A program made the translations under genes and the position numbers. A stretch of DNA of 64,000 nucleotides. Source: a virus. The DNA lies in IMG/VR virus record IMGVR_UViG_3300045988_037736, positions 1-64,000 of that record; one strand, 5' to 3'. The notes under the pieces are model-generated. The model saw only the letters and a program-made list of their open reading frames with translations. It made no database searches and had not been told where the DNA came from. Shown here in pieces: positions 3,574 to 27,500 of this stretch (its first letter is position 1; every line of letters starts with the position of its first letter).

Positions 3574-4512
3574 ATGAGTAACAAAGGTTTTCTTTTTATG
3601 GCTATTGCCAAAGGTAAGGAATCTACAGAAAGTGATTTCAAAAGGTACATTGGTGTAGCTCCCTGCTTCATCAAAGGTCTTAACCCCACTAAGGCTCAGC
3701 TTGAGGAGATTTATGGCAATCCTCAGGACAAAGAGCCTGAATATGTAGGTGAGGTAGAAGTTACTGAGGGTGAATCAAAAGTAAAGTATCCCAATGTAAG
3801 GCTTAGCTTCCTTACACTCCCCGACCCTGAAAAGGTAGGTGTTGAACTCAAGCCCATCAGTGTGGCTCTCTTCCTTCAGAAGAGGTTCAAGTATAATAAG
3901 GACAAGACCAAAGTACAGGTCATTGACAAGTATGGTAGAACTGCATGGGTTACCATCGAGGAGTGCAAGAATCATGAGATTCCCATGTACAGCAATGGCC
4001 CTGCCAATCTTGACAAGGACTATAGACCTGCTTATGTAGGTGAGGAAGAGCTTACCAACTTCCTTATTGCTTACCTCAATATCCCCTCTGTGATGAGGTA
4101 CAATCAGGGAGAGAAGAAATGGTATATGGTAGAGCATCCTGAGGAGTCAGAGTGCAGACTTGACCATATTGAAGACTACTTCAAGGGCAACTTCTCTGAG
4201 CTGAGAGATGCTCTTTCCCTTCAGCCTACCAACAAAGTCAAGATACTGTTTGGTATCAGAACTGACAATGAAGGCAGACAGTATCAGGCTGCTTTCACTC
4301 AGATGTTCCTGAAGAACAGTATCACTGATTACAGTAAGCTGGATGCAAATGTACAGGAAAGGAAGAACAATGGTGCTTATGCCACTACTGAGTTTGAAAT
4401 AGTAGACTTCCATGAGTACTCTGTAAAGAGTTCTACTATCACTGACAATGCAGCTGATGACCCCTTTGCATCTTCAGCTCCTGCTGCTTCAAATCCCTGG
4501 GATAACAAGTAA
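3574..4512 (+). CDS. hypothetical protein (replication module)
   Basis: 312-aa ORF preceded by the A-tract motif. No diagnostic motif was recognised. Confidence 0.4.
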   Translation: MSNKGFLFMAIAKGKESTESDFKRYIGVAPCFIKGLNPTKAQLEEIYGNPQDKEPEYVGEVEVTEGESKVKYPNVRLSFLTLPDPEKVGVELKPISVALFLQKRFKYNKDKTKVQVIDKYGRTAWVTIEECKNHEIPMYSNGPANLDKDYRPAYVGEEELTNFLIAYLNIPSVMRYNQGEKKWYMVEHPEESECRLDHIEDYFKGNFSELRDALSLQPTNKVKILFGIRTDNEGRQYQAAFTQMFLKNSITDYSKLDANVQERKNNGAYATTEFEIVDFHEYSVKSSTITDNAADDPFASSAPAASNPWDNK

Positions 4513-4515
4513 AGT

Positions 4516-5508
4516 ATGATAAGCTCAGGTGAACCCTTTGTATCTTTGGAAGATATATATAAGGTAACAACTGAAGCTGAAATAGCCCACTACTATTTAG
4601 GTGTGTCTAACATACCATGCAAGATAAACAGTCCATTGAGGTTAGACAGAAGTCCCTCATTTGGACTGTTTTCTCCTAATGGTAGCAGGATAACTTGGAT
4701 AGATTTCTCCTCTGGAGAGAGGGGAGGTATATTCGACCTGCTTGGAAAGATGTGGAACACTAGTTTTAAGGAGACTCTTGCAAGAATATATAAGGACTTC
4801 AATAAATTCAATGGAAGTGTTAAGATAGACTCCACAGGGCATTTGCCAATGGCACCTCGCATCAATGTAGGAAATAATGATGTTATAATGGAGTGCAAAG
4901 TTAGAGAGTGGAGGAAGCATGATATTGAATATTGGGAGTCTTATGGTATATCATTAGAGTGGCTTAAGTATGCTAATGTGCATCCTATATCTCACAAGAT
5001 AATAATCAAGAATGGTCAAAGATATGTCTTTGGAGCTGATAAGTATGCTTATGCTTATGCAGAGTTCAAGGATGGAAAAACCACTTTGAAGATTTACCAG
5101 CCATACAACAAGCAAGGATTCAAATGGAGCAACAAACATGATAGGTCTGTAATAAGCCTGTGGACAAAAGTGCCACCTACAGGGGATAGAGTATGTATAT
5201 GCTCTTCTCTAAAAGATGCACTATGTCTATGGTCTAATACAGGGATTCCTGCTTTGGCAATACAAGGTGAAGGATATACTATCAGTGATACTGCTGTTAG
5301 TGAATTGAAACGCAGATTCAAGAATGTCTATATCTTACTTGATAATGATGAGGCAGGACTGAAAGATGCTGAAATATTAGCTTCAAAAACTGGGTTCACT
5401 AACATAGTACTACCTAACATCAATGGTGCGAAAGATGTGTCAGACCTCTATCTTTCCCTCCAGGACAAAGAACAATTCCAAAAGATTATGATAGGTCTAT
5501 TTGATTAA
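4516..5508 (+). CDS. DnaG-type primase (TOPRIM domain)
   Basis: 'ILLDNDEAG' is the canonical TOPRIM DxDxxG motif. It is preceded by a conserved Glu-containing strand 'LAIQGEGY'. A possible zinc-binding N-terminus is present. Confidence 0.6.
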   Translation: MISSGEPFVSLEDIYKVTTEAEIAHYYLGVSNIPCKINSPLRLDRSPSFGLFSPNGSRITWIDFSSGERGGIFDLLGKMWNTSFKETLARIYKDFNKFNGSVKIDSTGHLPMAPRINVGNNDVIMECKVREWRKHDIEYWESYGISLEWLKYANVHPISHKIIIKNGQRYVFGADKYAYAYAEFKDGKTTLKIYQPYNKQGFKWSNKHDRSVISLWTKVPPTGDRVCICSSLKDALCLWSNTGIPALAIQGEGYTISDTAVSELKRRFKNVYILLDNDEAGLKDAEILASKTGFTNIVLPNINGAKDVSDLYLSLQDKEQFQKIMIGLFD

Positions 5509-11949: not shown

Positions 11950-12973
11950 ATCATTGAAAGAAATAAGCTGGGATGTTCCAGAGGATGTATATAGAGCAGA
12001 CCCTGCAATATCCTACTCTACCTTGTCAAAGTTTAAGAGAACAGGTTTCAATGAACTTGAACATCTTTTTGACAGGATTGATACTCCTTCTCTTACCTTC
12101 GGTTCTGCTGTAGATAGCATTATTACAGGTGGAGAAGAGGAGTTTGAGAGCAGGTTCATGGTAGCAGAGTTTCCTCCTGTTCCTGACTCTATTATCACTA
12201 TAGTAAAGTGCTTATTTGAGAACTATCACCATAATTATAGGATACTTGAAAACATCCCTGACAAGGAGGTTATAGAGGCAGCTTCTCAGTTCAACTATCA
12301 GAACAACTGGAAGCCAGAGACAAGAGCTAAAGTGATTAAGGAGAAAGGTTCTGCTTATTACAGACTACTGTACTTGAGCAAAGACAAGACTATTATTGAT
12401 ACTACCACTAACTTTGATATAAGAAGAACAGTGGGGGCACTCAAGAACAGTCCTGGTACTGGATGGTACTTTGCTCCTAAAAATCCCTTTGAGAACATTG
12501 AAAGGCTCTATCAGCTTAAGTTCAAAGCCACTCTTAATGGCATTGAATATAGGTGCATGGCAGACCTTCTGATAGTAGACTATGATAGGAAAGTGATTAT
12601 CCCTGTTGATTTGAAAACAAGTGGAAAGCCTGAATGGGACTTCTACAAATCATTTGTAGATTGGAGGTATGATATTCAAGCAAGGCTCTATTGGAGAATC
12701 ATTAGATATAACCTTGATAGAGACCCTTATTTTAAGGATTTTCAATTATGTGATTACAGGTTCATTGTAGCTAACAGGAGAACCCTCACCCCATTGATTT
12801 GGAATTGTGAATTTACCCAACAGAAGGGAACAATTTCATTTAATGATATAGTATTTGAAGACCCTGAAGATATAGGGAGAGAACTTCACACCTATCTTAC
12901 ATTAAGTTTATCAGTTCCCATAGGCATAAAGCTAGAGAAATGTAATTCATTAACTGAATGGTTAAGTAAATGA
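11941..12973 (+). CDS. PD-(D/E)xK nuclease (RecB/Cas4-like phage exonuclease family)
   Basis: 'CMADLLIVDYDRKVIIPVDLKTSGKP' carries the D-x(n)-D-L-K motif. The likely start is ATG ~11941, since the track start at 11885 overlaps the upstream ORF. Confidence 0.45.
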
Positions 12974-15135
12974 AAGTTACAAAAAGAGACGGTTCAATAG
13001 AGGATTTTGACATTGGCAAGATTGAAAAAGCTGTAAAAGCAGCCTATGCCAGTCAAGGTCAGGAAGTATCAGAAGGTATCTTAGCTGAACTGAACTATGT
13101 ATTTACACGGGATTACAAAGATGTAACTCTCAGTGTGGAACATATACAGGATGAAGTTGAGAAGATTCTGTTTGATTTGGCTCCTTATAAAGTTGCAAGG
13201 GCATATGTAACTTATAGAGAGCACCATAAACAGGCAAGATTCATAAGGGAAAGGCTGGATTATATGGAGAGGTATAGTTCTTCTTCTGATAATGCAGCCA
13301 CTTCCTCTGAGACAGATGCAAATGCAAATGTCACAATGAAGAATGTTGCCAACCTTGAGGGTGAGGTCTATAAGACCACCAATAGAACTATTCAAAGGCA
13401 AAGGATGAAGGACAAGCTCAATGAGATGTTCCCTGAACTTGCCAAGAGATATGAGGAAGACCTAAACCATCACATCATATATACCCACGATGAGGCATCT
13501 ACTCCAGTACTCAAGCAGTATTGCATGGCAGTGAGTCTCTATCCCCTTATGCTTGAGGGTGTTGGCAATATTGATGGGGTAACTCCAGGCCCTCCTAATG
13601 ATATACAGTCCTTTAGTGGGCAGATTACCAACCTTATCTTCCTCCTTTCTTCACAGTGTAAAGGTGCAGTAGCAGTAGGTGAATACTTTATTGCTCTCAA
13701 CTACTATATTGTGAAGGAATTTGGTCCTATGTGGTATGAGAAGCTTGATGAAATTGCCACATCAGACTTCTGTGTACAGAAAAGAACAATCAGAGACTCT
13801 ATACTTAAAGCTTTCAAGCAGTTTGTATGGGGTATCAATCAACCTGCTGGTAATAGGAGCTATCAGTCTCCCTTTACTAATATCTCCTATTATGACCATA
13901 CCTACTTTGAGTCACTCTTTGGAGAGTTTGCATATCCTGATGGTTCAAGACCTGAATGGAAGGCAATAGATACTCTCCAAAGAATGTTCATGAAGTGGTT
14001 TAACCAACTTAGATTGAAGCAGGTGCTTACATTCCCTGTTGAAACTATGGCTATGGTTCATGATGGCAAAGACATTATTGACAAGGAGTATAAACAGCTC
14101 ACTGCCGAAATGTATGCAGAAGGACACAGTTTCTTCACCTATATATCAGATAGTGCTGACAGTCTTGCCTCTTGTTGTAGGTTGAAGAATGAACTCACTG
14201 AGAATACCTTCAGTCCTACCTCTGGCCTTACTGGTGTTATGACAGGTAGTTGTAATGTAATTACCTTGAATATCAACAGAATTGTACAAGATTGTGTAAG
14301 AATAAACAATCTAAGTAGAGGCGAATGGTGGGATGGAGATAAGATATTGCTCAAGAATTACCTCGTAAACATTCTGGAAAGGGTTTATAAGTATCATATT
14401 GCATTCAAAACAATGCTTTATGAAACTGAAGACAAAGGTATGTTTGCAGCAAGCAATGGTGGATATATTCACATAAGCAAGCTGTATAGCACCATTGGTA
14501 TCAATGGTCTGAATGAAGCTGCAAGGTTCTTAGGTCTTGATGTAAGCAACAATGAGAAATACTTTGAGTTTCTCCAGCTTATTCTTGAGACCATCAAGGA
14601 ACAGAACAAACTTCATTCAATCCATGACAAGAAGAGACCTTTCCTGTTCAATTCAGAGGTAGTTCCTGCTGAAGGACTTGGTGGCAAGAACTATAATTGG
14701 GACAAAGAGGATGGCTATTGGGTTCCTGAAGACGAGAATCTATATAATAGTTACTTCTATAATGCCCATGACGATACATCAGTACTTGACAAGTTTATTC
14801 TTCATGGAAGAAAGACTTATCAATATACTGATGGTGGTTCTGCTGCACATATCAATCTTGCAGAGCATCTTAGCAAGGAACAATATCTTAAGCTGATAGA
14901 TTTTGCAATAGCACAGGGTACTAACTATTTTACCTTCAATATTCCTAACAGCAAGTGTAACAAGTGTGGGCACATTACCAAATCAATTATGAAAGTGTGT
15001 CCTAAATGTGGAGGAACTCATATCACTTATTACACAAGAGTAATAGGTTATCTTAGGCCAATCGACAAGTTTGGAGAAGATAGGCAGATTGAGGCAAAGA
15101 AAAGATACTATAAGAGTGATGTTGAAATATGTTGA
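12970..15135 (+). CDS. nrdD: anaerobic ribonucleoside-triphosphate reductase NrdD (class III)
   Basis: N-terminal ATP-cone 'VTKRDGSIEDFDIGKIEKAV'. C-terminal Zn-ribbon 'CNKCGH...CPKCGG'. Glycyl-radical motif 'RVIGYLRP'. Confidence 0.85.
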   Translation: MKVTKRDGSIEDFDIGKIEKAVKAAYASQGQEVSEGILAELNYVFTRDYKDVTLSVEHIQDEVEKILFDLAPYKVARAYVTYREHHKQARFIRERLDYMERYSSSSDNAATSSETDANANVTMKNVANLEGEVYKTTNRTIQRQRMKDKLNEMFPELAKRYEEDLNHHIIYTHDEASTPVLKQYCMAVSLYPLMLEGVGNIDGVTPGPPNDIQSFSGQITNLIFLLSSQCKGAVAVGEYFIALNYYIVKEFGPMWYEKLDEIATSDFCVQKRTIRDSILKAFKQFVWGINQPAGNRSYQSPFTNISYYDHTYFESLFGEFAYPDGSRPEWKAIDTLQRMFMKWFNQLRLKQVLTFPVETMAMVHDGKDIIDKEYKQLTAEMYAEGHSFFTYISDSADSLASCCRLKNELTENTFSPTSGLTGVMTGSCNVITLNINRIVQDCVRINNLSRGEWWDGDKILLKNYLVNILERVYKYHIAFKTMLYETEDKGMFAASNGGYIHISKLYSTIGINGLNEAARFLGLDVSNNEKYFEFLQLILETIKEQNKLHSIHDKKRPFLFNSEVVPAEGLGGKNYNWDKEDGYWVPEDENLYNSYFYNAHDDTSVLDKFILHGRKTYQYTDGGSAAHINLAEHLSKEQYLKLIDFAIAQGTNYFTFNIPNSKCNKCGHITKSIMKVCPKCGGTHITYYTRVIGYLRPIDKFGEDRQIEAKKRYYKSDVEIC

Positions 15136-16648: not shown

Positions 16649-16797
16649 AAGAATACATAAAACTTCAATCAAGATATAGAGAAGATGAAAACTATTCTGG
16701 TGGTTCCTTTATACAGAAAGGAACTGAAATTAATGGCAACATAGTCAAGTCTATATCAAGAGGAGAAGAGGGAGTTATTATTGAATTTGAGCAATGA
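16645..16797 (+). CDS. small hypothetical protein (50 aa)
   Basis: An ATG at 16645 overlaps the upstream TGA, and the stop overlaps the polA ATG (ATGA). It is below the ORF-track size cut-off. Confidence 0.25.
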   Translation: MKEYIKLQSRYREDENYSGGSFIQKGTEINGNIVKSISRGEEGVIIEFEQ

Positions 16798-19115
16798 TTT
16801 ATCTTGTTACCAATGCAATTCTCCCTGGAATTGAATCTCCTTATTACAAAATAGTAAGTGTAGAAGAGTCTTTAGCTCTGCTTGAACCCTTGAGAGTTGT
16901 GGGACTTGATACTGAGACTATGGGATTTGACCCTTATACAAAGGAGCTTCTTATGGTTCAGTTGGGGTGCTATGAGTTTCAAGTGGTAATAGATTGCACT
17001 ACAGTTAACATACAACAATATAAAGCCTATCTTGAATCAGACAGGCTCTTTATAGGATGGAATATCAAGTTTGACTTGAAGTTCCTATATCATAAAAGGA
17101 TAGTACCTAAGAGAGTCTATGATGGTTTCTTGGCTGAGAAACTTATGTGGCTTGGCTATCCTGCTGGCATTCATGGTATGTCTTTGAAGGCAGCAGGTGA
17201 GAACTATCTTGGAGTTGAACTTGACAAGACTGTTCGAGGGAAGATTATGTGGGCTGGTCTTTCAGATGAAGTCATTGTGTATGGTGCCAATGATGTGAAA
17301 TATCTGGAGAAGATTATGGAGGCCCAACAGCCTGAACTTGAAAGAAGAGGTCTTGTCAATGCTCTTGTCTATGAAAATATGTCAGTACTTTGGCTGGCAT
17401 ACACAGAATATTGTGGAGTTCTTCTTGATGTTCAGAGATGGCAGGAGAAGATGGAACTTGATAGCTTCTCTGAAAGAGTATTCAAGAAAGGTCTTAATGA
17501 CTGGGTTGTTGCTTGTGTAAAAGGGAGAAACTTTGCTTATCACTATCTACAGACTGATGGTGTTGATGAAGAGGATTTAGAGAAGGCCAGAGCCAGTATG
17601 AAGGGTGAAAGATGCCCTGAAATGGACATCAAAGGAGAAAAGAGAGGCTATTGTGAAGCTTATAGAGTGGTAGTTGAAGGTAATATAGACCCCAAGTTTG
17701 TAGGACCTGATATACCAGCAAATCTCTTTGAAGGACCAAGAGAGGGAGAATGTACCATAAATTGGGATAGTCCCAAGCAGGTAGTTCCCCTTCTCCTATC
17801 ACTAGGATTTGACCTGCTGGTTCAAGATGATGAGACGGGTGAAATGAAACATAGTACTGAGTCTAAAGTCATAGAACCTCAACAGGATAAGTCAACTTTA
17901 GCTTATCTTTATCTTCAATATAAGGCTGCTAAGAAAGTAACCTCTACTTATGGACAGAATGTTCTCAATCAGATAAATGAAAGGAGCAGGAGAATCCATA
18001 CCAACTTCAATCAGTTAGGCACAGATACAGGTAGATTAAGTTCAGGAGGCAAGGACAAGGCTAATGGTCTTGAATATCTTAACTTTCAGAACTTTCCTGC
18101 TGACCCTGTGACTAGAGCCTGCTTCATATCTGGACCAGGTATGAAGTGGATTAGTTGTGACTATAGTGGGCAGGAAAGTAGGATTATAGCTGACATAACC
18201 AATGATATGGCATTACTAGACCTGTTTAATCATGGTTGTGGTGATGTCCATTCATTGGTAGCCAAGATGTCCTATCCTGACATTATAGGTGACTGTCCTG
18301 TAGAAGAAGTAAAGAAGAGATTCAAACATTGGAGAAGTGAAGCCAAAGGTGTTGAATTTGCCATAAACTATGGTGGTGATGCCAACACTATCAAGAATAA
18401 CAAAGGTATACCTATAGAGGAAGCTCAGAAGATATATGATAGTTATATGAAGGGTTTTAAGGGTATGAAGACATATCAGGATAGACAGAGAAAGTTTGTC
18501 ATGGAACATGGTTTCATAATTCTTAATTCTATAAGTCATCATAAGGCTTATATTTATGACTATGATTTACTTATGAGAACTAAAGCTAGGTTCACAAGAG
18601 AGTTCTGGGATGTTTACAAGAAACACAAAGGACATGACAATAGGAAAATTCCTAAGGCTGTCCTTCAACAGTTATATCAGAGGTTTGCTAATGGTGAACC
18701 TTTTGAATCTATGGCTGGTGTTTATACCTATACCAAGAAGAAGGGCAAGATGGAAGAGACAAAGGAGGTTACTGTAACTATCTCTGATGTCTATGTCCAT
18801 CCTGTAAGACACTACTTCAAGAGGAAGGCTGCTTCTGAGAAGCAAGCTATCAACTATCCCTGTCAAGGTACAGGTGCTGTAATGTTCAAGACTGCATCAG
18901 TATTCCTATGGGAGTATCTTGTAGAACATGACCTCCTCTTTAAGGTTAAACTCTGTATACCTGCACATGATGAATGGAACATAGAAGTTCCTGAAGAAAT
19001 GGCAGAGGAAATGACAAAGGTCTTAAAGGATTGTATGAGTAAAGCTGGCTCTTATTTCTGTAGGAAGTTGGAGTTGCCTGCTGATGCAGAGCTTTGTGAC
19101 CACTGGGTACATTAA
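16794..19115 (+). CDS. polA: DNA polymerase, family A, with 3'-5' exonuclease domain
   Basis: Exo I 'VGLDTETMG'. Motif A 'DYSGQESRIIA'. Motif B 'RSEAKGVEFAINYGG'. Motif C 'PAHDEW'. Confidence 0.85.
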   Translation: MIYLVTNAILPGIESPYYKIVSVEESLALLEPLRVVGLDTETMGFDPYTKELLMVQLGCYEFQVVIDCTTVNIQQYKAYLESDRLFIGWNIKFDLKFLYHKRIVPKRVYDGFLAEKLMWLGYPAGIHGMSLKAAGENYLGVELDKTVRGKIMWAGLSDEVIVYGANDVKYLEKIMEAQQPELERRGLVNALVYENMSVLWLAYTEYCGVLLDVQRWQEKMELDSFSERVFKKGLNDWVVACVKGRNFAYHYLQTDGVDEEDLEKARASMKGERCPEMDIKGEKRGYCEAYRVVVEGNIDPKFVGPDIPANLFEGPREGECTINWDSPKQVVPLLLSLGFDLLVQDDETGEMKHSTESKVIEPQQDKSTLAYLYLQYKAAKKVTSTYGQNVLNQINERSRRIHTNFNQLGTDTGRLSSGGKDKANGLEYLNFQNFPADPVTRACFISGPGMKWISCDYSGQESRIIADITNDMALLDLFNHGCGDVHSLVAKMSYPDIIGDCPVEEVKKRFKHWRSEAKGVEFAINYGGDANTIKNNKGIPIEEAQKIYDSYMKGFKGMKTYQDRQRKFVMEHGFIILNSISHHKAYIYDYDLLMRTKARFTREFWDVYKKHKGHDNRKIPKAVLQQLYQRFANGEPFESMAGVYTYTKKKGKMEETKEVTVTISDVYVHPVRHYFKRKAASEKQAINYPCQGTGAVMFKTASVFLWEYLVEHDLLFKVKLCIPAHDEWNIEVPEEMAEEMTKVLKDCMSKAGSYFCRKLELPADAELCDHWVH

Positions 19116-20874: not shown

Positions 20875-21444
20875 ATGGAATATTGGAAATCAGTAGTAGG
20901 TTATGAAGGATGCTACGAAGTTAGCTCCTTAGGAAGAGTAAGGAGTGTAGAGAGACAAGTGTGGAACCCTGGAAGGAATTGTTACAGAACTCAATACTCT
21001 AGAGTTTTGAGATTGTTTCAAGATAATAAAGGTTATTACAGAGTTACACTGTCGAAGGATGGGAAGCTCAATCAGAAACTAGTACATAGATTAGTAGCTG
21101 AGGCATTCATCCCCAACCCAAATAATCTGCCTCAAATAAATCACAAAGATGAGGTTACTTCTAATAACAATGTTTCTAATTTGGAATGGTGTTCTAATGA
21201 TTATAATTGTAATTATGGAAACCATAATGCAAACATTAGTGCAACTCAATCTATTCCTATAGAGCAGTTGTCCATAGATGGGACTCTTATCAAGGAGTGG
21301 TCCTCTGCTAGGGAAGCTGAAAGGTCTCTCGGTATTCCAAATGTAAACATTCTTAGGTGTTGTCATGGTGGTTTTTACAGTAAAGGTAGAGGAAGATGGG
21401 TAAATGTAACTACAGCTAATGGCTTCAAATGGAGATTCAAATAA
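20875..21444 (+). CDS. HNH homing endonuclease (NUMOD4 + HNH)
   Basis: The N-terminal NUMOD4-like segment is 'GYEGCYEVSSLGRVRS'. The HNH core is 'HRLVAEAFIPNP...INHKDEVTSNNNVSNLEW'. Confidence 0.7.
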   Translation: MEYWKSVVGYEGCYEVSSLGRVRSVERQVWNPGRNCYRTQYSRVLRLFQDNKGYYRVTLSKDGKLNQKLVHRLVAEAFIPNPNNLPQINHKDEVTSNNNVSNLEWCSNDYNCNYGNHNANISATQSIPIEQLSIDGTLIKEWSSAREAERSLGIPNVNILRCCHGGFYSKGRGRWVNVTTANGFKWRFK

Positions 21445-21631
21445 TATGGAAAAGTTAGTAGTAATTGACTTTCTATGTCAGGAGGTTGAAGTTCATATCT
21501 ATAACATATCTTCTGATATAGAAGTTGATGAGGAGTTCATTGAGAAGTTGGGACATGATACCAACCATTGTCAGTGGGCTTTCGGAACAAAAGTAGACAT
21601 AGTAAAACATAAAGGAAAAATACTGAAATGA
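21419..21631 (+). CDS. hypothetical small protein
   Basis: 70-aa ORF. Confidence 0.3.
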   Translation: MASNGDSNNMEKLVVIDFLCQEVEVHIYNISSDIEVDEEFIEKLGHDTNHCQWAFGTKVDIVKHKGKILK

Positions 21632-21897
21632 AACTATTACAATTCAAAGCAAACTGGTGTGGTCCTTGCAGGCAGCAGACCAAAGAGTTTGAGGAGAACC
21701 CTGTAGATGTAGAGGTTGTAGCTATTGACATTGATGAAGATGAGGCTGAACTCTCTACTAAGTATGGGATTAGGAGCATTCCTACAATGATTCTCATAGG
21801 AGACAATGATGAAATGTTGCATAGGTGGACTGGCTACACTAAATCTAGTACTATCAATGAGTTCATCAATGAATCAAGAGGAATTGCAGCTCCTTAG
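21628..21897 (+). CDS. trx: thioredoxin
   Basis: The 'WCGPC' active site is at residues 10-14 of an 89-aa ORF. It terminates with TAG. Confidence 0.7.
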   Translation: MKLLQFKANWCGPCRQQTKEFEENPVDVEVVAIDIDEDEAELSTKYGIRSIPTMILIGDNDEMLHRWTGYTKSSTINEFINESRGIAAP

Positions 21898-22233: not shown

Positions 22234-22439
22234 AGAAGTTCATAGTGGAGTCAGTATATCATGTACATATCATAAAGAAAGGACATGAATTTACAACTAC
22301 TGAACATCTTATAGCTGATTCATTCGAGGATGCTGTAGCTATGTGCAGAGAGATGTATCCTGATGGACATCTGGAGAGAGTAGAACTTGCCTTTCAAGCA
22401 AAGAAAAGACCTACAAAAACAATAACTGTTGAAATATGA
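22230..22439 (+). CDS. hypothetical small protein
   Basis: 69-aa ORF. Confidence 0.35.
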   Translation: MKKFIVESVYHVHIIKKGHEFTTTEHLIADSFEDAVAMCREMYPDGHLERVELAFQAKKRPTKTITVEI

Positions 22440-24268
22440 AACTTATAAACCCTTCATTTGAAATATATGAGCAAGGTCCTGGTTTAGATGGTATCTATGA
22501 AGCTATAGAGAGGGCAGGTAGGACTTGTTATAAAAGTAAAAGGCCAGAGGGTCAAACAGCAAAGGACTTTGTTGACAGGATGATTGCTTCTCAACATTGT
22601 TATACAGGTAGTAGTGAGGTTCTCACTGAAAGAGGGTGGGTTCCTTGGCATAGTTATAGTGGAGAAAAAGTAGCTGTTGTAGATAGAGACTCTAGCCAAT
22701 TTATTGGCTTTGAGTTCCCTACTAGAGTAATATCTCATGAATACACTGGTAACTTCTATTACTACCCATCACTAGGTTTAGAAGTTACAGATGGGCATAG
22801 AATGTATGGGCTATTTAGAGAAAGTAGAAATAACTTTTATAATAGTTCTTACTATGATGTCTTTGTATGTGGGCAATCCTATAAGGATAATAATGGTAGA
22901 GAAAAGACCCTTGGAGAGAGGATGTTCAAATCTCCTAAACATTGTCCAAAACCTATCTACACTAACCCTTTCTATGAACTAATAGGATTCTGGCTAGGAG
23001 ATGGTTGCTACCAAAAAGATACAATAAATAAGTTAGTATTCCATCTTAAGAAAGACAGGAAAATAGAGTATCTTATAAATCTATGTAATGAGCTAGGGTA
23101 TAAATTTGAGATAGGTAAGGGAAATTATTACAAAGTAGTTAGAGATGGTATAGGAGAGCTGGTTAATTCTCAGTTTTATTATAATGGTAAATACATTCCA
23201 ATGATGTATAAAGCTGATGACCCTATTGCTGTTAATTCTATAATAAAAGGATTGATTAACTCTGATGGGAGTGTTGGAGTAAATACCAAGACTGTTACTT
23301 TTACCAGCACCAGCTATAGCATCATAGATTGGATAAACTCTGTAGCCCCTATTGGCGGTTATACAGCCTCATTCAGAGGAATTTGTCATGAAACTCCTGT
23401 ACACAATCCTGTGTATAAAATTCTTTTGTTAGATACTGATTATACTATTAACAATGATAGTAGAAACCCAGACTCTAAAGTTAGAATAACTAATAAAACA
23501 GAGAGAGTTTATTGTGTTACTGTCTCTACTGGCTTGATTATAGTTAGAGGTGACAATGGGGTTACTTCTATCTGTGGTAACTGTGCAATGCTAGAGCATG
23601 GTACTGTGTACCTTAAAGTCCCTAATAGTGTTGTAGATGAAGGGTTCCAGTTTGGCACTAATTGGAGTATTTTATGCCTAAATCCTTATACGAAATATAC
23701 TAGTGATGGAGATTATTACTACTATACGACTAACTACAGAGTAATTATAGAACATGGCTTACAAGGAGTTCTTGAGTATCTTTGTGAACCTACAGAATAT
23801 CATGAAAAGAGAATTACTGTGAGGTTTACAACTGATAGGGGAGTATCCCATGAATTTGTAAGACACAGAGTATTCTCTTTTGCTCAGGAAAGTACAAGGT
23901 ATTGTAACTATTCTAAGGATAAGTTTGGAAATGAACTTACTTTTATTATTCCTAACTGGGTTAATACTCATTGTCCTAATAAGGAACAAGAAGGTCCTTC
24001 TGTACCTGATATGGAATGGAGTTCTGCAATGTTAAATGCAGAAGCAAGTTATATGAATCTTCTTAAAATGGGTTGGACTCCTCAGCAAGCAAGGACTGTT
24101 TTACCAAACTCCTTAAAGACAGAATTAGTTGTAACTGGGTTTGTATCTGATTGGAAGAAATTCTTTAGACTCAGAAGTAGGATTGCTGAAACTGGAAAAC
24201 CTCATCCACAAGCTCAGGAACTTGCAGATTCACTTATGGATGAGTTTGTCAAAAGAGGATTGATATGA
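22436..24268 (+). CDS. thyX: flavin-dependent thymidylate synthase ThyX interrupted by an intein
   Basis: The N-extein is 'RTCYKS...ASQH'. The C-extein is 'CAMLEHGTV...RHRVFSFAQESTRY', containing the ThyX RHR...S signature. The 610-aa precursor is far longer than the 220-300 aa typical of ThyX. Confidence 0.75.
   Translation: MKLINPSFEIYEQGPGLDGIYEAIERAGRTCYKSKRPEGQTAKDFVDRMIASQHCYTGSSEVLTERGWVPWHSYSGEKVAVVDRDSSQFIGFEFPTRVISHEYTGNFYYYPSLGLEVTDGHRMYGLFRESRNNFYNSSYYDVFVCGQSYKDNNGREKTLGERMFKSPKHCPKPIYTNPFYELIGFWLGDGCYQKDTINKLVFHLKKDRKIEYLINLCNELGYKFEIGKGNYYKVVRDGIGELVNSQFYYNGKYIPMMYKADDPIAVNSIIKGLINSDGSVGVNTKTVTFTSTSYSIIDWINSVAPIGGYTASFRGICHETPVHNPVYKILLLDTDYTINNDSRNPDSKVRITNKTERVYCVTVSTGLIIVRGDNGVTSICGNCAMLEHGTVYLKVPNSVVDEGFQFGTNWSILCLNPYTKYTSDGDYYYYTTNYRVIIEHGLQGVLEYLCEPTEYHEKRITVRFTTDRGVSHEFVRHRVFSFAQESTRYCNYSKDKFGNELTFIIPNWVNTHCPNKEQEGPSVPDMEWSSAMLNAEASYMNLLKMGWTPQQARTVLPNSLKTELVVTGFVSDWKKFFRLRSRIAETGKPHPQAQELADSLMDEFVKRGLI
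22598..23581 (+). mobile_element. LAGLIDADG-type intein inside thyX (~328 aa)
   Basis: It starts 'CYTGSSEVLTERG' (Hint block A). LAGLIDADG blocks are 'LIGFWLGDGC' and 'KGLINSDGSV'. It ends '...GVTSICGN' followed by the +1 Cys of the extein. Confidence 0.65.
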
Positions 24269-24532: not shown

Positions 24533-27500
24533 ATGAGTAAAGTATGTTATATACCCTTGAAAGGGGTAGATGATGTGATTGCAGCACATCTTGGGTGGAA
24601 ACCCACAGCAACCTTTAACCCAGCCTATAGAGTGGCTACACTTAGAGGCATGTATGATGAGGTACATGAGAAGAATCCACTTGATACTTCTGACCCTGCA
24701 AAAGCAGCTCAAGCTCTTGCAACTTTCAGAAAGGAAATAGCAAGAGGAAATAATGTTGCCATGAACAGTATAGGCACCAATCTTCATGCCTCTTACATAC
24801 AGCTTAGAAGGAACTTCACAGCAGAAGAAAGGTTCAATAGAGTCAATATGCTTGCATCTATGTTCTCAAGATGGATTGACAGGATGAAGGCAGCTGACCC
24901 TTCAAAGTCAAGAACTCAGTTTGTTGAAGGCTTCACTAGAGATGGTAAGCTAGTGGCAGGAGAGTTTGCAATCTTTGAAAAGATGTATAGTGAGTTGATA
25001 GATAAGCAGTCTTACTATATGAGCCTTAATACTCAAGAGGGCAGGGAAAGAGCAGACAAAATCAACCAAATACTCAGTAACTGGGCACCTCTTACAGCCT
25101 TTGTGAGAATGAAGCTCAGAGATACTGAGGGTGTCAAGCTTGGTAATGCACTTGAATGGGCAGATGAAACCAATGCTGATAACTTTGGTGAGAATAACAT
25201 GGGTGAGTTGTTTGATATGTCAGAGTCTAAAAGAGAAAGCTGGCAAGAGACCAATGATATGCAGTCTTCCTTTGGCTCTGTGGGCAAGAATGTTAGGAGG
25301 CTTATTAGCTGCGCTCCTCTATACAAGGAGGTAGATGGAAAGCCACAAGTTCAGTATGATGACCTTGGTCATCCTATCATGCTTGACCCTGTAAAAGTCC
25401 ATCAAGCCCTTATGGAAGACCTGAGAGGTATTACTTCCGAAGACCAGATGATGAGAGCTTTCTTTACAAAGGATGGTTCTCTAAAGCATGAATGGCTCAA
25501 GCCTATTGTGCAGACTCTAAGGACAAACAACCAACTTAGAACACAGTTCTTTGTTGACTTCAAGAAGAATTTCCAACCCTATTCTATCCTTGTAGAAGAT
25601 AAAGACCCTGCTAATAAAGGACTCAAGGTCTTCAAGACTAAGTTACTAAACAGGGTTGAGAACCTTCTAGGTGGTGAGTTTATGACAAGAGTTCAACTTG
25701 GTACTCCTGTCAATGAAATGAACTCAGTCTTTGACAAGAATGGAAATGTGGACTGGCAGAATCTTCAGAAGGTAAGAAGCTCTATTACAGAGTGGCTCAA
25801 TCCTGGTCCTATGAAAGTAGCTAAATGGGACAATCCAAAAACTACAAGGGCTGAAAAGAGAGCTTTCCTCCTTGAGAAGAGAGCTTTCCTCCTTGAGGTA
25901 AGTGAGGCTCTTGGTATGCCAGTGGATGCTGATACTGTTGACTCTATCATGGGCACTCCTAAAGACTTAAAGGAGTATCTAAACAATCTGAAACAAGCTC
26001 TTGTATATGGTATTGAAGGTAACCTTACCAAAGAGGTTGCTGACAAACTTACAGCAGGAGACTACTCCATAAGTAAGAGAAGCTATAAGTCACTTCTTAA
26101 TGCACAGAACTCATCTAAGGGTTCTCTCAGGGAGAAGATAGATAAGATGCTTACTCTAGTAACCAAGAACAGAGAAGGACTTAGACTAGAATCCAGAGTG
26201 AGGCACAAAGACTCTAAGGGAAATGGTATCACTCTCTTCTCTAATATCAATCCTTCCTACATGGGGGACAAACTTGAACTCATTAAGAGTTATGTAGAAG
26301 CTAATGATAAGAAAGGTCTTAAGAAGTTCCTTGAAGACCACTATCTAAGCTCCTCATATTTCAGAGATTCAAAAGGTACAGTTCTCAATGTGTGGCTTGA
26401 GGAATTACTCAAGTGCTGTGATGAGAAAGGTCCTGAACTCTCTGAGACTTTTGCAGCTCAGTTTGACTACATGAGGTCTCTTGGTTCTGCTGACATTAAC
26501 TTTGAGAACTTCACTGGAAAGCAGCACATGGTTGATATGCTTACCAGATTCTTCTCTGATAAACAGATTAGCTCAAATGCAGATACTGCTCTATATCCTG
26601 TCTTCATTCTTGGTGATAGTGGTGTGAGCAAATACATAAGAGCCAAGATGTATGAAGCAGAGGACATCCTTGATGGAATGTACAAGGTATGGAGGCAAGA
26701 GAAAAGAAGAATGATGCTCACTGAAGCAGCCAATAGAATCCTTGAAGAAGGAGGCTATAAGGGCATTGATAACTTCTCAAAGAGAAAGGTTGAAGTAAAG
26801 AGAGATGCAAGTGGCAAAGTCATTGATGTTGTTGGTGAGTATACTATGCTCCCCTTCCTCAATGAACCTAAGTATGCTAAACTCCTTGGAAGCCAGAGTG
26901 AAGCAGAAGTGAAAGCTGCTATACAGGCTTATATGGCTGATGCTCTTGTAAGTTTCAAACAGTCCCTCAATAATATGGGATTGCTTGAAACCAAGACTGT
27001 AAAGGCTAGAGACCCCAAGACAGGGAAGTATTCTGATGTTGAAAGGTATGTACATCTACCTAAGAACATCTCTCCTGCTACTCTTGACAGAGACCTTGCA
27101 AGATTCTACTGGAATACTAAGTTTGCTACTATTCAACAGCTCCAGATGATGACCATAGATACTGCCTTCTATAAAGGTACTAAAGACCTTCAGAAGAGGT
27201 ACAAGGAGATTCATGCTCCTGGTCAGGTTCTCAGCCTTACTGCTCTTGACAGAGATGGCAAGAGATATAGTGAGGATGGAATTGAAAGGTGCATCTACTT
27301 TGATGACATAGAGTTAAGTTCTGCTGACACCAACCCTAAATTCCTTGCTGCTGTAAAAGCAAGACTTGGAGAAGGTGCTTGGAAGAAATACCTTGAGAAT
27401 ACTCTTACTGATGGACAGGGTTACAGAAGCCTTAGGTCTTACAGAAAGGTTCTTGGTATGGCAGGTCAGTGGACTGATGAAATGGAGAATGCTTTCAGAG

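Follow-up and report, generated by a model that had tools for sequence, protein, structure and literature searches.

ThyX, the thymidylate synthase complementing protein, is an established intein host. Splicing has been shown for the Ter ThyX intein of Trichodesmium erythraeum (PMC3620165; Liu and Yang, 2004, as quoted in PMC4913046), mycobacteriophages of cluster C1 carry ThyX inteins named 'TdS' (PMC5050341), and gp22 of Corynebacterium phage P1201, again a ThyX, is annotated 'contains hypothetical intein'. Among the crAss-like phages, inteins and group I introns are known in genes other than thyX, mainly from the groups Delta and Zeta (PMC7886860); for a ThyX intein in these phages, a literature search turned up no published report. 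The locus that we describe here belongs to the first 64,000 nucleotides of the IMG/VR virus record IMGVR_UViG_3300045988_037736, a stretch that we call the window and that is part of a Crassvirales genome. Its thyX gene is split by an insert of 328 codons. This insert is very probably a bifunctional intein, currently active and mobile, in a gut phage of ~100 kb that is distantly related to the Steigviridae of the crAss001 type.

A preliminary description of this DNA, made from its letters, had proposed that thyX carries an intein with a LAGLIDADG nuclease in its active-site motif, and this has held: the insertion is precise and in frame, its predicted fold combines a Hint splicing domain with a LAGLIDADG nuclease, and Cys1, TxxH, the terminal Asn and Cys+1 are all in place. 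Translation of the open reading frame (ORF) places the insert at residues 55–382 of a precursor of 610, exactly at the coordinates and with the length first given (Table 1). It begins with CYTGSS and finishes with SICGN in front of Cys+1, as had been read, and the reported replacement of the penultimate His by Gly (Gly327, followed by Asn328 and Cys+1) turns out to be a trait of the whole family. The site alone has to be renamed, in part: it lies, as claimed, inside the conserved N-terminal motif of ThyX (VGHFSVLEH in M. tuberculosis), but this motif does not literally read GHESxLEH, being here SQH-C-AMLEH.

The host protein is not in question. In the whole precursor the Pfam model Thy1 matches the C-terminal part only, with LAGLIDADG_3 in the middle; removal of the insert in silico leaves a product of 282 residues that matches Thy1 at E=4.5e-32 and scores above the cut-off of the NCBIfam equivalog thyX TIGR02170 (91.9 versus 87.9 bits). 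Aligned to ThyX structures, this product sets ..SQH-CAMLEH.. opposite ..VGH-FSVLEH.. of M. tuberculosis and ..VGH-TALLEH.. of C. glutamicum. Intein-free alleles are plentiful. The crAss001 protein gp54, to which the ThyX of the window is ~54% identical, and those of other cultured crAss-like phages are contiguous, ~290–300 residues long, and read MIKSGH|GAMLEH across the site (in the DNA of the crAss001 gp54 type, ..AAATCTGGTCAT|GGT..). The gene is likewise uninterrupted in all of the best 80 IMG/VR relatives of the spliced protein. Seventy-three of these fit the motif pattern, are collinear across the junction, as is gp54, and have at the position equivalent to +1 a Gly (64 alleles), a Tyr (5) or, once each, Asp, Asn, Leu and Trp; Cys is found in none. 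Further empty alleles checked by eye have Thr or Gln there, never Cys. Every intein-bearing crAss-like allele examined has Cys+1, which co-occurs strictly with the insert. An in-frame insertion in a conserved host protein, orthologues that are devoid of it and a collinear sequence after its removal: these are the marks of an intein.

The splicing domain itself is best seen in structure. An AlphaFold2 model of the insert, built from an alignment of 36 homologues, reaches a predicted local distance difference test (pLDDT) of 94.3 and a predicted template modelling score (pTM) of 0.91. When this model is compared with the PDB by Foldseek, the best 15 matches, over alignments spanning 414–577 columns, are all bifunctional inteins (PI-SceI, TliVMA, PI-PfuI and PI-PkoII, with E from 3.5e-13 to 8e-9); free-standing LAGLIDADG enzymes, including I-DmoI and I-Tsp061I, come in the ranks that follow. 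At the level of sequence, a profile limited to the Hint part and built from 14 divergent family members matches the solved AceL NrdHF intein (6ZGQ) over the N-terminal lobe, with E=6.3e-10, and the Mtu RecA mini-inteins weakly, while a profile of the full-length family retrieves from the PDB the nuclease domains of PI-SceI and PI-PfuI only, and weakly. Model, Foldseek ranking and match to 6ZGQ agree on a Hint fold as far as a predicted structure can tell, so that the insert as a genuine intein, a predicted Hint splicing domain enclosing a two-motif LAGLIDADG nuclease, is a well-supported reading.

The nuclease is the easier half to recognize. Both LAGLIDADG blocks named in the preliminary description, LIGFWLGDGC and KGLINSDGSV, are present with their conserved Asp residues, Pfam LAGLIDADG_3 scores the insert at 25.9 bits against a cut-off of 22.5, and the structural matches, to I-DmoI, I-Tsp061I and the PI-SceI and PI-PfuI nuclease domains, fit the alpha-beta-beta-alpha-beta-beta-alpha fold of a monomeric enzyme with two motifs. 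Forty-eight protein clusters carry this intein in crAss-like ThyX, with full-length matches 43–79% identical and of constant length; the 36 aligned inteins measure 318–336 residues, with 0 frameshifts and 0 internal stops. The intein is under purifying selection. The ratio of non-synonymous to synonymous substitution rates (dN/dS), with the window paired to the IMG/VR contig L084, is 0.11 for the whole intein (0.12 for Hint-N, 0.095 for the nuclease, 0.06 for Hint-C) and 0.18 for the exteins, values that come from this single pair, in which dS is near saturation (1.9).

As to mobility, the search for empty and occupied alleles that had been suggested gave both, with exteins 96–97% identical. 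In a tree of 140 flanking extein residues the occupied alleles are scattered among the empty ones, and usually have an empty allele as nearest neighbour, several of them a very close one (P0037/L078 at 97% and P0035/L083 at 96% identity over these residues), the same alleles being only ~64% identical to the nearest other occupied one. Judged from the sequences, such near-identical pairs are the pattern that would be expected of recent gain by homing, or of precise loss. After its release the intein would presumably act as a homing endonuclease, cutting the intein-free thyX of co-infecting relatives; repair from the occupied allele would then copy the intein in, with co-conversion of the obligatory Cys+1 codon.

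Table 1. Features of thyX and of its neighbourhood, in positions of the 64,000-nucleotide window
Feature	Positions	Strand	Remarks
NrdD	12970-15135		
PolA	16794-19115		
Thioredoxin	21628-21897		
thyX precursor ORF	22436..24268	+	610 aa + stop; N-extein, intein, C-extein
N-extein	22436..22597	+	54 aa, C-terminal ..DRMIASQH; conserved His of the N-terminal ThyX motif at -1
Intein	22598..23581	+	328 aa, Cys1 to Asn328, precursor residues 55-382
Hint N-terminal lobe	22598..22951	+	~aa 1-118; limits approximate, from secondary structure of the model
Block A, Cys1	22598-22600	+	invariant
Block B, T64-D-G-H67-R68-M69	22787-22804	+	TxxH at 22787-22798; H67 invariant, position 64 T/S
LAGLIDADG homing-endonuclease domain	22952..23467	+	~aa 119-290; Pfam LAGLIDADG_3, profile and Foldseek matches
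LAGLIDADG motif 1, LIGFWLGDGC	Asp135 at 23000-23002	+	Asp nearly invariant
LAGLIDADG motif 2, KGLINSDGSV	Asp223 at 23264-23266	+	Asp invariant
Hint C-terminal lobe	23468..23581	+	~aa 291-328; blocks F and G
Block F (candidate), VYC306VTVSTGLIIVR317	Cys306 at 23513-23515	+	Y305 and C306 invariant (36 sequences)
Block G, SIC326-G327-N328	23573-23581	+	G327-N328 (23576-23581) invariant
C-extein	23582..24265	+	228 aa, Cys+1 (23582-23584), then AMLEHGTV
ThyX signature motif RHRVFSFAQESTRY	23861..23902	+	in C-extein, intact; fits RHRxxSxxxxSxRY
Giant ORF	after thyX		2283 aa; relatives annotated as hypothetical protein or putative RNA polymerase

The residues that would carry out splicing are remarkably constant. 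In the 36 aligned homologues, which are 35–80% identical to the window intein, C1, T64, H67, Y305, C306, G327 and N328 do not vary, and Cys+1 is nearly invariant (Ser in P0046); in the 14 divergent members C1, H67, C306, R317, G327 and N328 are still invariant, T64 becoming Ser in one clade. The intein therefore starts with the Cys1 nucleophile typical of class 1, found in all 36 + 14 sequences, has in block B the motif TxxH (T64-D-G-H67), and ends at N328|C with an Asn that never varies and a +1 residue that varies between Cys, Ser and Thr within the family. The penultimate His, at block G position 6, is common in inteins, not obligatory; here it is Gly327 family-wide. Functional inteins that dispense with this His are on record (PMC5050341, PMC7891396). 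One of them, the class 1 intein of mycobacteriophage Bethlehem in gp51 (the recombination directionality factor, RDF, hence a host protein different from ThyX), has a penultimate Gly and splices fast, and changing this Gly to His makes it slower (PMC5050341), so that the Gly of the window intein is no defect.

The remaining position of interest is Cys306. The motif V-Y-C-V-T-V, compared with the usual V-[YF]-D-L-T-V (pattern V[YF]x[LV]TV), would place it at block F position 4, and its distance to Asn328, 22 residues, equals that from C124 to N146 in AceL NrdHF (PMC7891396). A profile of the 43 positions of blocks F and G gave chance matches only, HslV for example, and for this reason motif and spacing, rather than an alignment with a solved intein, are what the assignment of block F relies on. 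At position F:4 standard inteins usually have Asp, while class 3 inteins have there their obligate nucleophile (PMC2807308). In the crAss clade, moreover, B:11 is Arg and B:12 is Met.

Within the intein reading, class 1 is the default route, and we consider it probable. The 610-residue precursor would be translated and its insert would fold as a Hint domain around the two-motif LAGLIDADG nuclease. Cys1 would make an N-S acyl shift at His54|Cys55, aided by Thr64 and His67 of block B; the N-extein would be handed to Cys+1; Asn328 would cyclize with no help from a penultimate His, perhaps assisted by Arg68 (B:11), as is Asn cyclization by Arg69 in AceL NrdHF; and an S-N shift would yield the 282-residue ThyX ..SQH-C-AMLEH.., with Cys at motif position x3. 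Since the N-terminal motif is interrupted immediately after its conserved His, the precursor is presumably inactive before splicing, in which case the ThyX-dependent supply of deoxythymidine monophosphate (dTMP) in the phage would hinge on splicing. A literature search on His53 of ThyX, aimed at the role of the -1 His, found nothing.

Several results weigh against the picture of an active, mobile, class 1 intein, and they are best told together. Neither the precursor nor the isolated insert matched any Hint or intein model in Pfam and NCBIfam scans, which gave just LAGLIDADG_3 and a sub-threshold Hom_end, so that the check by intein hidden Markov models (HMMs) that the preliminary description had recommended would by itself have read negative; a phmmer search of the insert against PDB sequences gave zero matches. 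Because none of these searches finds Hint, its assignment rests on the predicted structure and on one profile match. Three usual helpers of splicing are absent, namely Asp at F:4 (Cys instead), the block F His and the penultimate His, which makes the class 1 route an assumption, and the nearest solved relative with the same constellation of residues, AceL NrdHF, uses the class 3 route (PMC7891396). The near-saturated dS behind the selection ratios belongs to the same list. Finally, no empty allele of the window's own species was found: a scan of metagenome contigs for the empty junction gave 0 matches, and is uninformative because the control scan for the occupied junction gave 0 as well (this junction was found once in IMG/VR). 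Recent homing in that particular lineage is, for want of such an allele, unsupported.

What these residues call up first is a different chemistry for the same element. In a class 3-like or mixed route Cys306, and not Cys1, would attack the N-terminal junction; the branched thioester formed at block F would be passed to Cys+1, and Cys1 would be dispensable, redundant or engaged in a relay. A Cys at F:4 shared by all 36 close and all 14 divergent members fits well with this scheme, as do Met at B:12, Arg at B:11, Gly at G:6, the lack of a block F His and the 22-residue spacing, all of which match AceL NrdHF, the very intein found by the family profile at E=6.3e-10; it is experimentally of class 3, its C124A and C124S mutants being dead (PMC7891396). 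Yet class 3, as defined, has no N-terminal nucleophile, Trp at B:12 and Thr at G:5 (PMC2807308): with Cys1, Met69 at B:12 and Cys326 at G:5 the window intein is excluded by definition, and its Met69, Cys306 and Cys326 share with the Trp-Cys-Thr (WCT) triplet nothing but the Cys at F:4. An invariant Cys1, family-wide, in three insertion registers and several host genes, would moreover be unexpected were it dispensable; block B has its canonical TxxH; the N-lobe is 15% identical to that of AceL NrdHF; and a recognized, polyphyletic category of class 1 inteins has Cys at F:4, according to the part of PMC3196547 that cites Tori and Perler (2011). Taken as a whole, the class 3-like route looks unlikely. 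It has an evolutionary counterpart, which we put forward as a doubtful idea: the inteins with CY..TEVLT, VTxxH.M, VYC.TV and ..GN could be a phage-borne lineage endowed with both candidate first nucleophiles, from which AceL NrdHF would have branched off, losing Cys1 independently of the canonical WCT clade of class 3. If this were true, the origin of class 3 chemistry would be directly testable by C1A and C306A mutants, and the case would speak against class 3 inteins having arisen separately, by convergence.

Another possibility accepts splicing and denies mobility. The intein would be a fixed passenger in this lineage, its nuclease no longer mobile, and retained as imprecise loss would destroy ThyX. 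The exact protein and its close variants are found on >56 contigs, every one of them occupied, as the cluster's definition requires; no empty allele of the species has come to light; and motif 1 has decayed in some distant relatives, with GGG for GDG in P0046 and GVG in P0010. In the window, by contrast, both catalytic Asp residues are intact, and dN/dS is as low in the nuclease domain (0.095) as in the Hint lobes. In other parts of the crAss group the occupied and empty pairs with exteins 96–97% identical speak for recent gain or loss, and the scan for empty alleles carries no weight, the occupied junction being missing from the same collection too. We find a fixed passenger quite unlikely, and keep to a nuclease that would still be mobile. 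That the insert is no intein at all, being a native lineage-specific domain of ThyX or a fused nuclease kept in the mature enzyme, is extremely improbable: the failure of sequence searches to match a Hint HMM is what speaks for it, whereas the insert splits a conserved ThyX motif, is absent from most homologues, even from some with flanks 96–97% identical, is strictly accompanied by Cys+1, has at its boundaries the invariant nucleophile/Asn/nucleophile chemistry that splicing requires and matches intein nucleases over their full length in predicted fold, and the native domain in particular, which the preliminary description had named as the finding that would overturn it, is ruled out by the collinear crAss001 gp54, the empty IMG/VR alleles and the near-identical empty/occupied pairs.

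Two side observations concern the junction. At position -2 (Gln53 in the window, 22592-22594) the empty crAss-like alleles have S-G-H in 64 of 73 cases; the occupied ones often have Q, K, D, E or N (SQH, SEH, SDH), even at 96–97% extein identity, a difference that may reflect a co-conversion tract or an adaptation of the flank to splicing. Four empty IMG/VR alleles (L009, L019, L020 and L053) read SQH-Y-AMLEH, with a TAT codon that is one base away from the TGT of the spliced junction of the window, SQH-C-AMLEH. They could be the footprint of a precise loss of the intein followed by a change of C to Y, or a variant resistant to homing.

This intein lineage is not confined to one point of the gene. 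If the residues of the ThyX motif are numbered G1-H2-x3-S4-x5-x6-E7-H8, the insertion is found in three adjacent registers: H2|x3 in the crAss clade (H|CAMLEH) and in L090 and L095 (H|SSPFE and H|STPFE); x3|S4 in P1201, P0046, L088, L089 and L092-L094 (HH|SVLEH and similar); and S4|x5 in L085-L087 (GHYG|CLEH). Extein alignments across the three need no gaps, and in a neighbour-joining tree (an unsupported one) each register makes one group, the third nested in the second. This suggests imprecise ectopic invasions (H|x, Hx|S, HxG|C) that were rescued wherever a +1 nucleophile fits. The same lineage, recognized in proteins P0049-P0083 and loci L085-L095 by CY..TEVLT, VTPNH[RN]M, VYC.TV and ..GN, occupies a second site in ThyX, ..(S/D)R(A/G)|C.., and has further host proteins in NrdD, endonuclease Q and DNA methyltransferases, where it sits in the DPFxG motif of the last. 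From this distribution we infer repeated ectopic invasion of conserved motifs of nucleotide metabolism, the register being set by the +1 nucleophile that is tolerated. Many of these proteins are short N-terminal fragments; they could be split inteins, truncated gene calls or the ends of contigs. A scan of genome contigs for cellular homologues returned none, except a weak match of the nuclease domain in a metagenome-assembled genome (MAG) of Saccharibacteria; as it used one single narrow peptide pattern, it does not establish that the lineage is absent from cells.

The neighbourhood of the gene has some features of its own. Between PolA and thioredoxin, ~1 kb upstream of thyX, lies a free-standing ORF of 189 residues (20875-21444, +), a homing-endonuclease-like gene with matches to NUMOD4 (E=2.8e-14) and HNH_3 (E=4.4e-07). 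The giant ORF that follows thyX is, in its first 1000 residues, ~43–44% identical to its counterparts in cr106_1, Kolpuevirus and DAC15, and contains a perfect 21-nucleotide tandem duplication (25853-25897, +; GAAAAGAGAGCTTTCCTCCTT GAGAAGAGAGCTTTCCTCCTT GAG), read as EKRAFLL-EKRAFLL-E, the three bases GAG after it starting a further copy. Base composition says nothing of a recent arrival of the intein: the content of guanine plus cytosine is 0.347 in the intein, 0.365 in the exteins and 0.387 over the whole window, differences too small to use, and a recent arrival recognizable by foreign composition was set aside.

Relatives have yet another element in this gene. Group I introns (Rfam RF00028) sit in thyX of L084 (4978-5255, 56.8 bits) and of L003 (1950-2329, Kehishuvirus 'tikkala', 71.8 bits), between ..DRGVSH and EFVRHR.., just upstream of the ThyX signature motif. 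In L084 an ORF of 254 residues (4399-5163) lies in the intervening stretch, and the intein is present in this gene too. It is because of such an intron before the signature that many crAss-like 'ThyX' proteins in databases stop after ..GVSHK. In the window an Rfam scan of the 64 kb found no family at gathering score, tRNAs and introns included, which rules out a group I intron in its thyX.

In practical terms, many crAss-like ThyX entries of the databases are intein precursors, some of them shortened further by a group I intron. The public protein identical to the 610-residue precursor, DAH01810.1, is named 'Thymidylate synthase complementing protein [Crassvirales sp.]', a name silent on the intein, and its cluster, the exact protein with close variants on >56 contigs of ~100 kb, is annotated as thymidylate synthase only. 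As the standard intein HMMs also miss the Hint domain, the family is probably under-called in genomes of gut phages. The thyX gene of crAss-like phages is thus the target of at least two kinds of mobile elements, at two different conserved motifs. And the host of the present intein is a crAss001-like phage, related to the Steigviridae, while the published crAss-like load of introns and inteins lies mainly in Delta and Zeta (PMC7886860).

How, then, does this intein compare with those already described? The closest is that of P1201, an actinobacterial siphophage. It sits in the same host protein and in the same N-terminal motif, is homologous over its full length, LAGLIDADG domain included, at 27% identity, and likewise has Cys1, TxxH followed by Met, a VYC.TV block F and a terminal ..GN devoid of the penultimate His. 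Its insertion point is one residue further downstream (KHH|SVLEH versus SQH|CAMLEH), its +1 residue is Ser where the window has Cys, and it keeps the block F His (PNHTLYV) that the crAss clade has lost. The Trichodesmium gene offers a parallel of another kind, since it combines its intein with a group II intron, whereas the crAss-like relative L084 combines the present intein with a group I intron.

The nearest solved relative by sequence profile is the AceL NrdHF split intein (6ZGQ; Hoffmann et al., 2020; PMC7891396), with which the window intein shares a block B of the type xSPNHRM (Arg at B:11, Met at B:12), Cys at F:4, a penultimate Gly (G145), the lack of a block F His, a host gene of nucleotide metabolism and, probably, a phage origin, the AceL contig having been judged phage-like by its authors (PMC7891396). 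They termed its constellation 'unusual': the triplet Met-Cys-Thr (M-C-T), G145, and R69 aiding Asn cyclization, in an intein that is of class 3 by experiment (PMC7891396). It differs in having Ala1, hence no N-terminal nucleophile, where Cys1 is invariant in the family of the window; in being split by nature, its two halves flanking a GIY-YIG gene, where the window has an embedded LAGLIDADG domain; in Thr at G:5, Ser+1 and its host gene, nrdHF; and in an N-lobe 15% identical, pairwise, to that of the window. PI-SceI (the Sce VMA1 intein), PI-PfuI and TliVMA have the same two-domain architecture, Hint plus LAGLIDADG, and give the best Foldseek matches over full length (E between 3.5e-13 and 1.4e-10), at 11–14% sequence identity and with 100–130 residues more. 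These archetypes have a penultimate His and mostly Asp at block F position 4. For the specialist, the value of the case lies in the coexistence of Cys1 with Cys at F:4 and no C-terminal His, a constellation common to an intein experimentally of class 3, and in register shifts of a single codon; the general picture of inteins is unchanged by it. As judged from its sequence, the intein of the window adds to the known ThyX inteins, is homologous to that of P1201, and is fairly ordinary apart from a few unusual catalytic residues.

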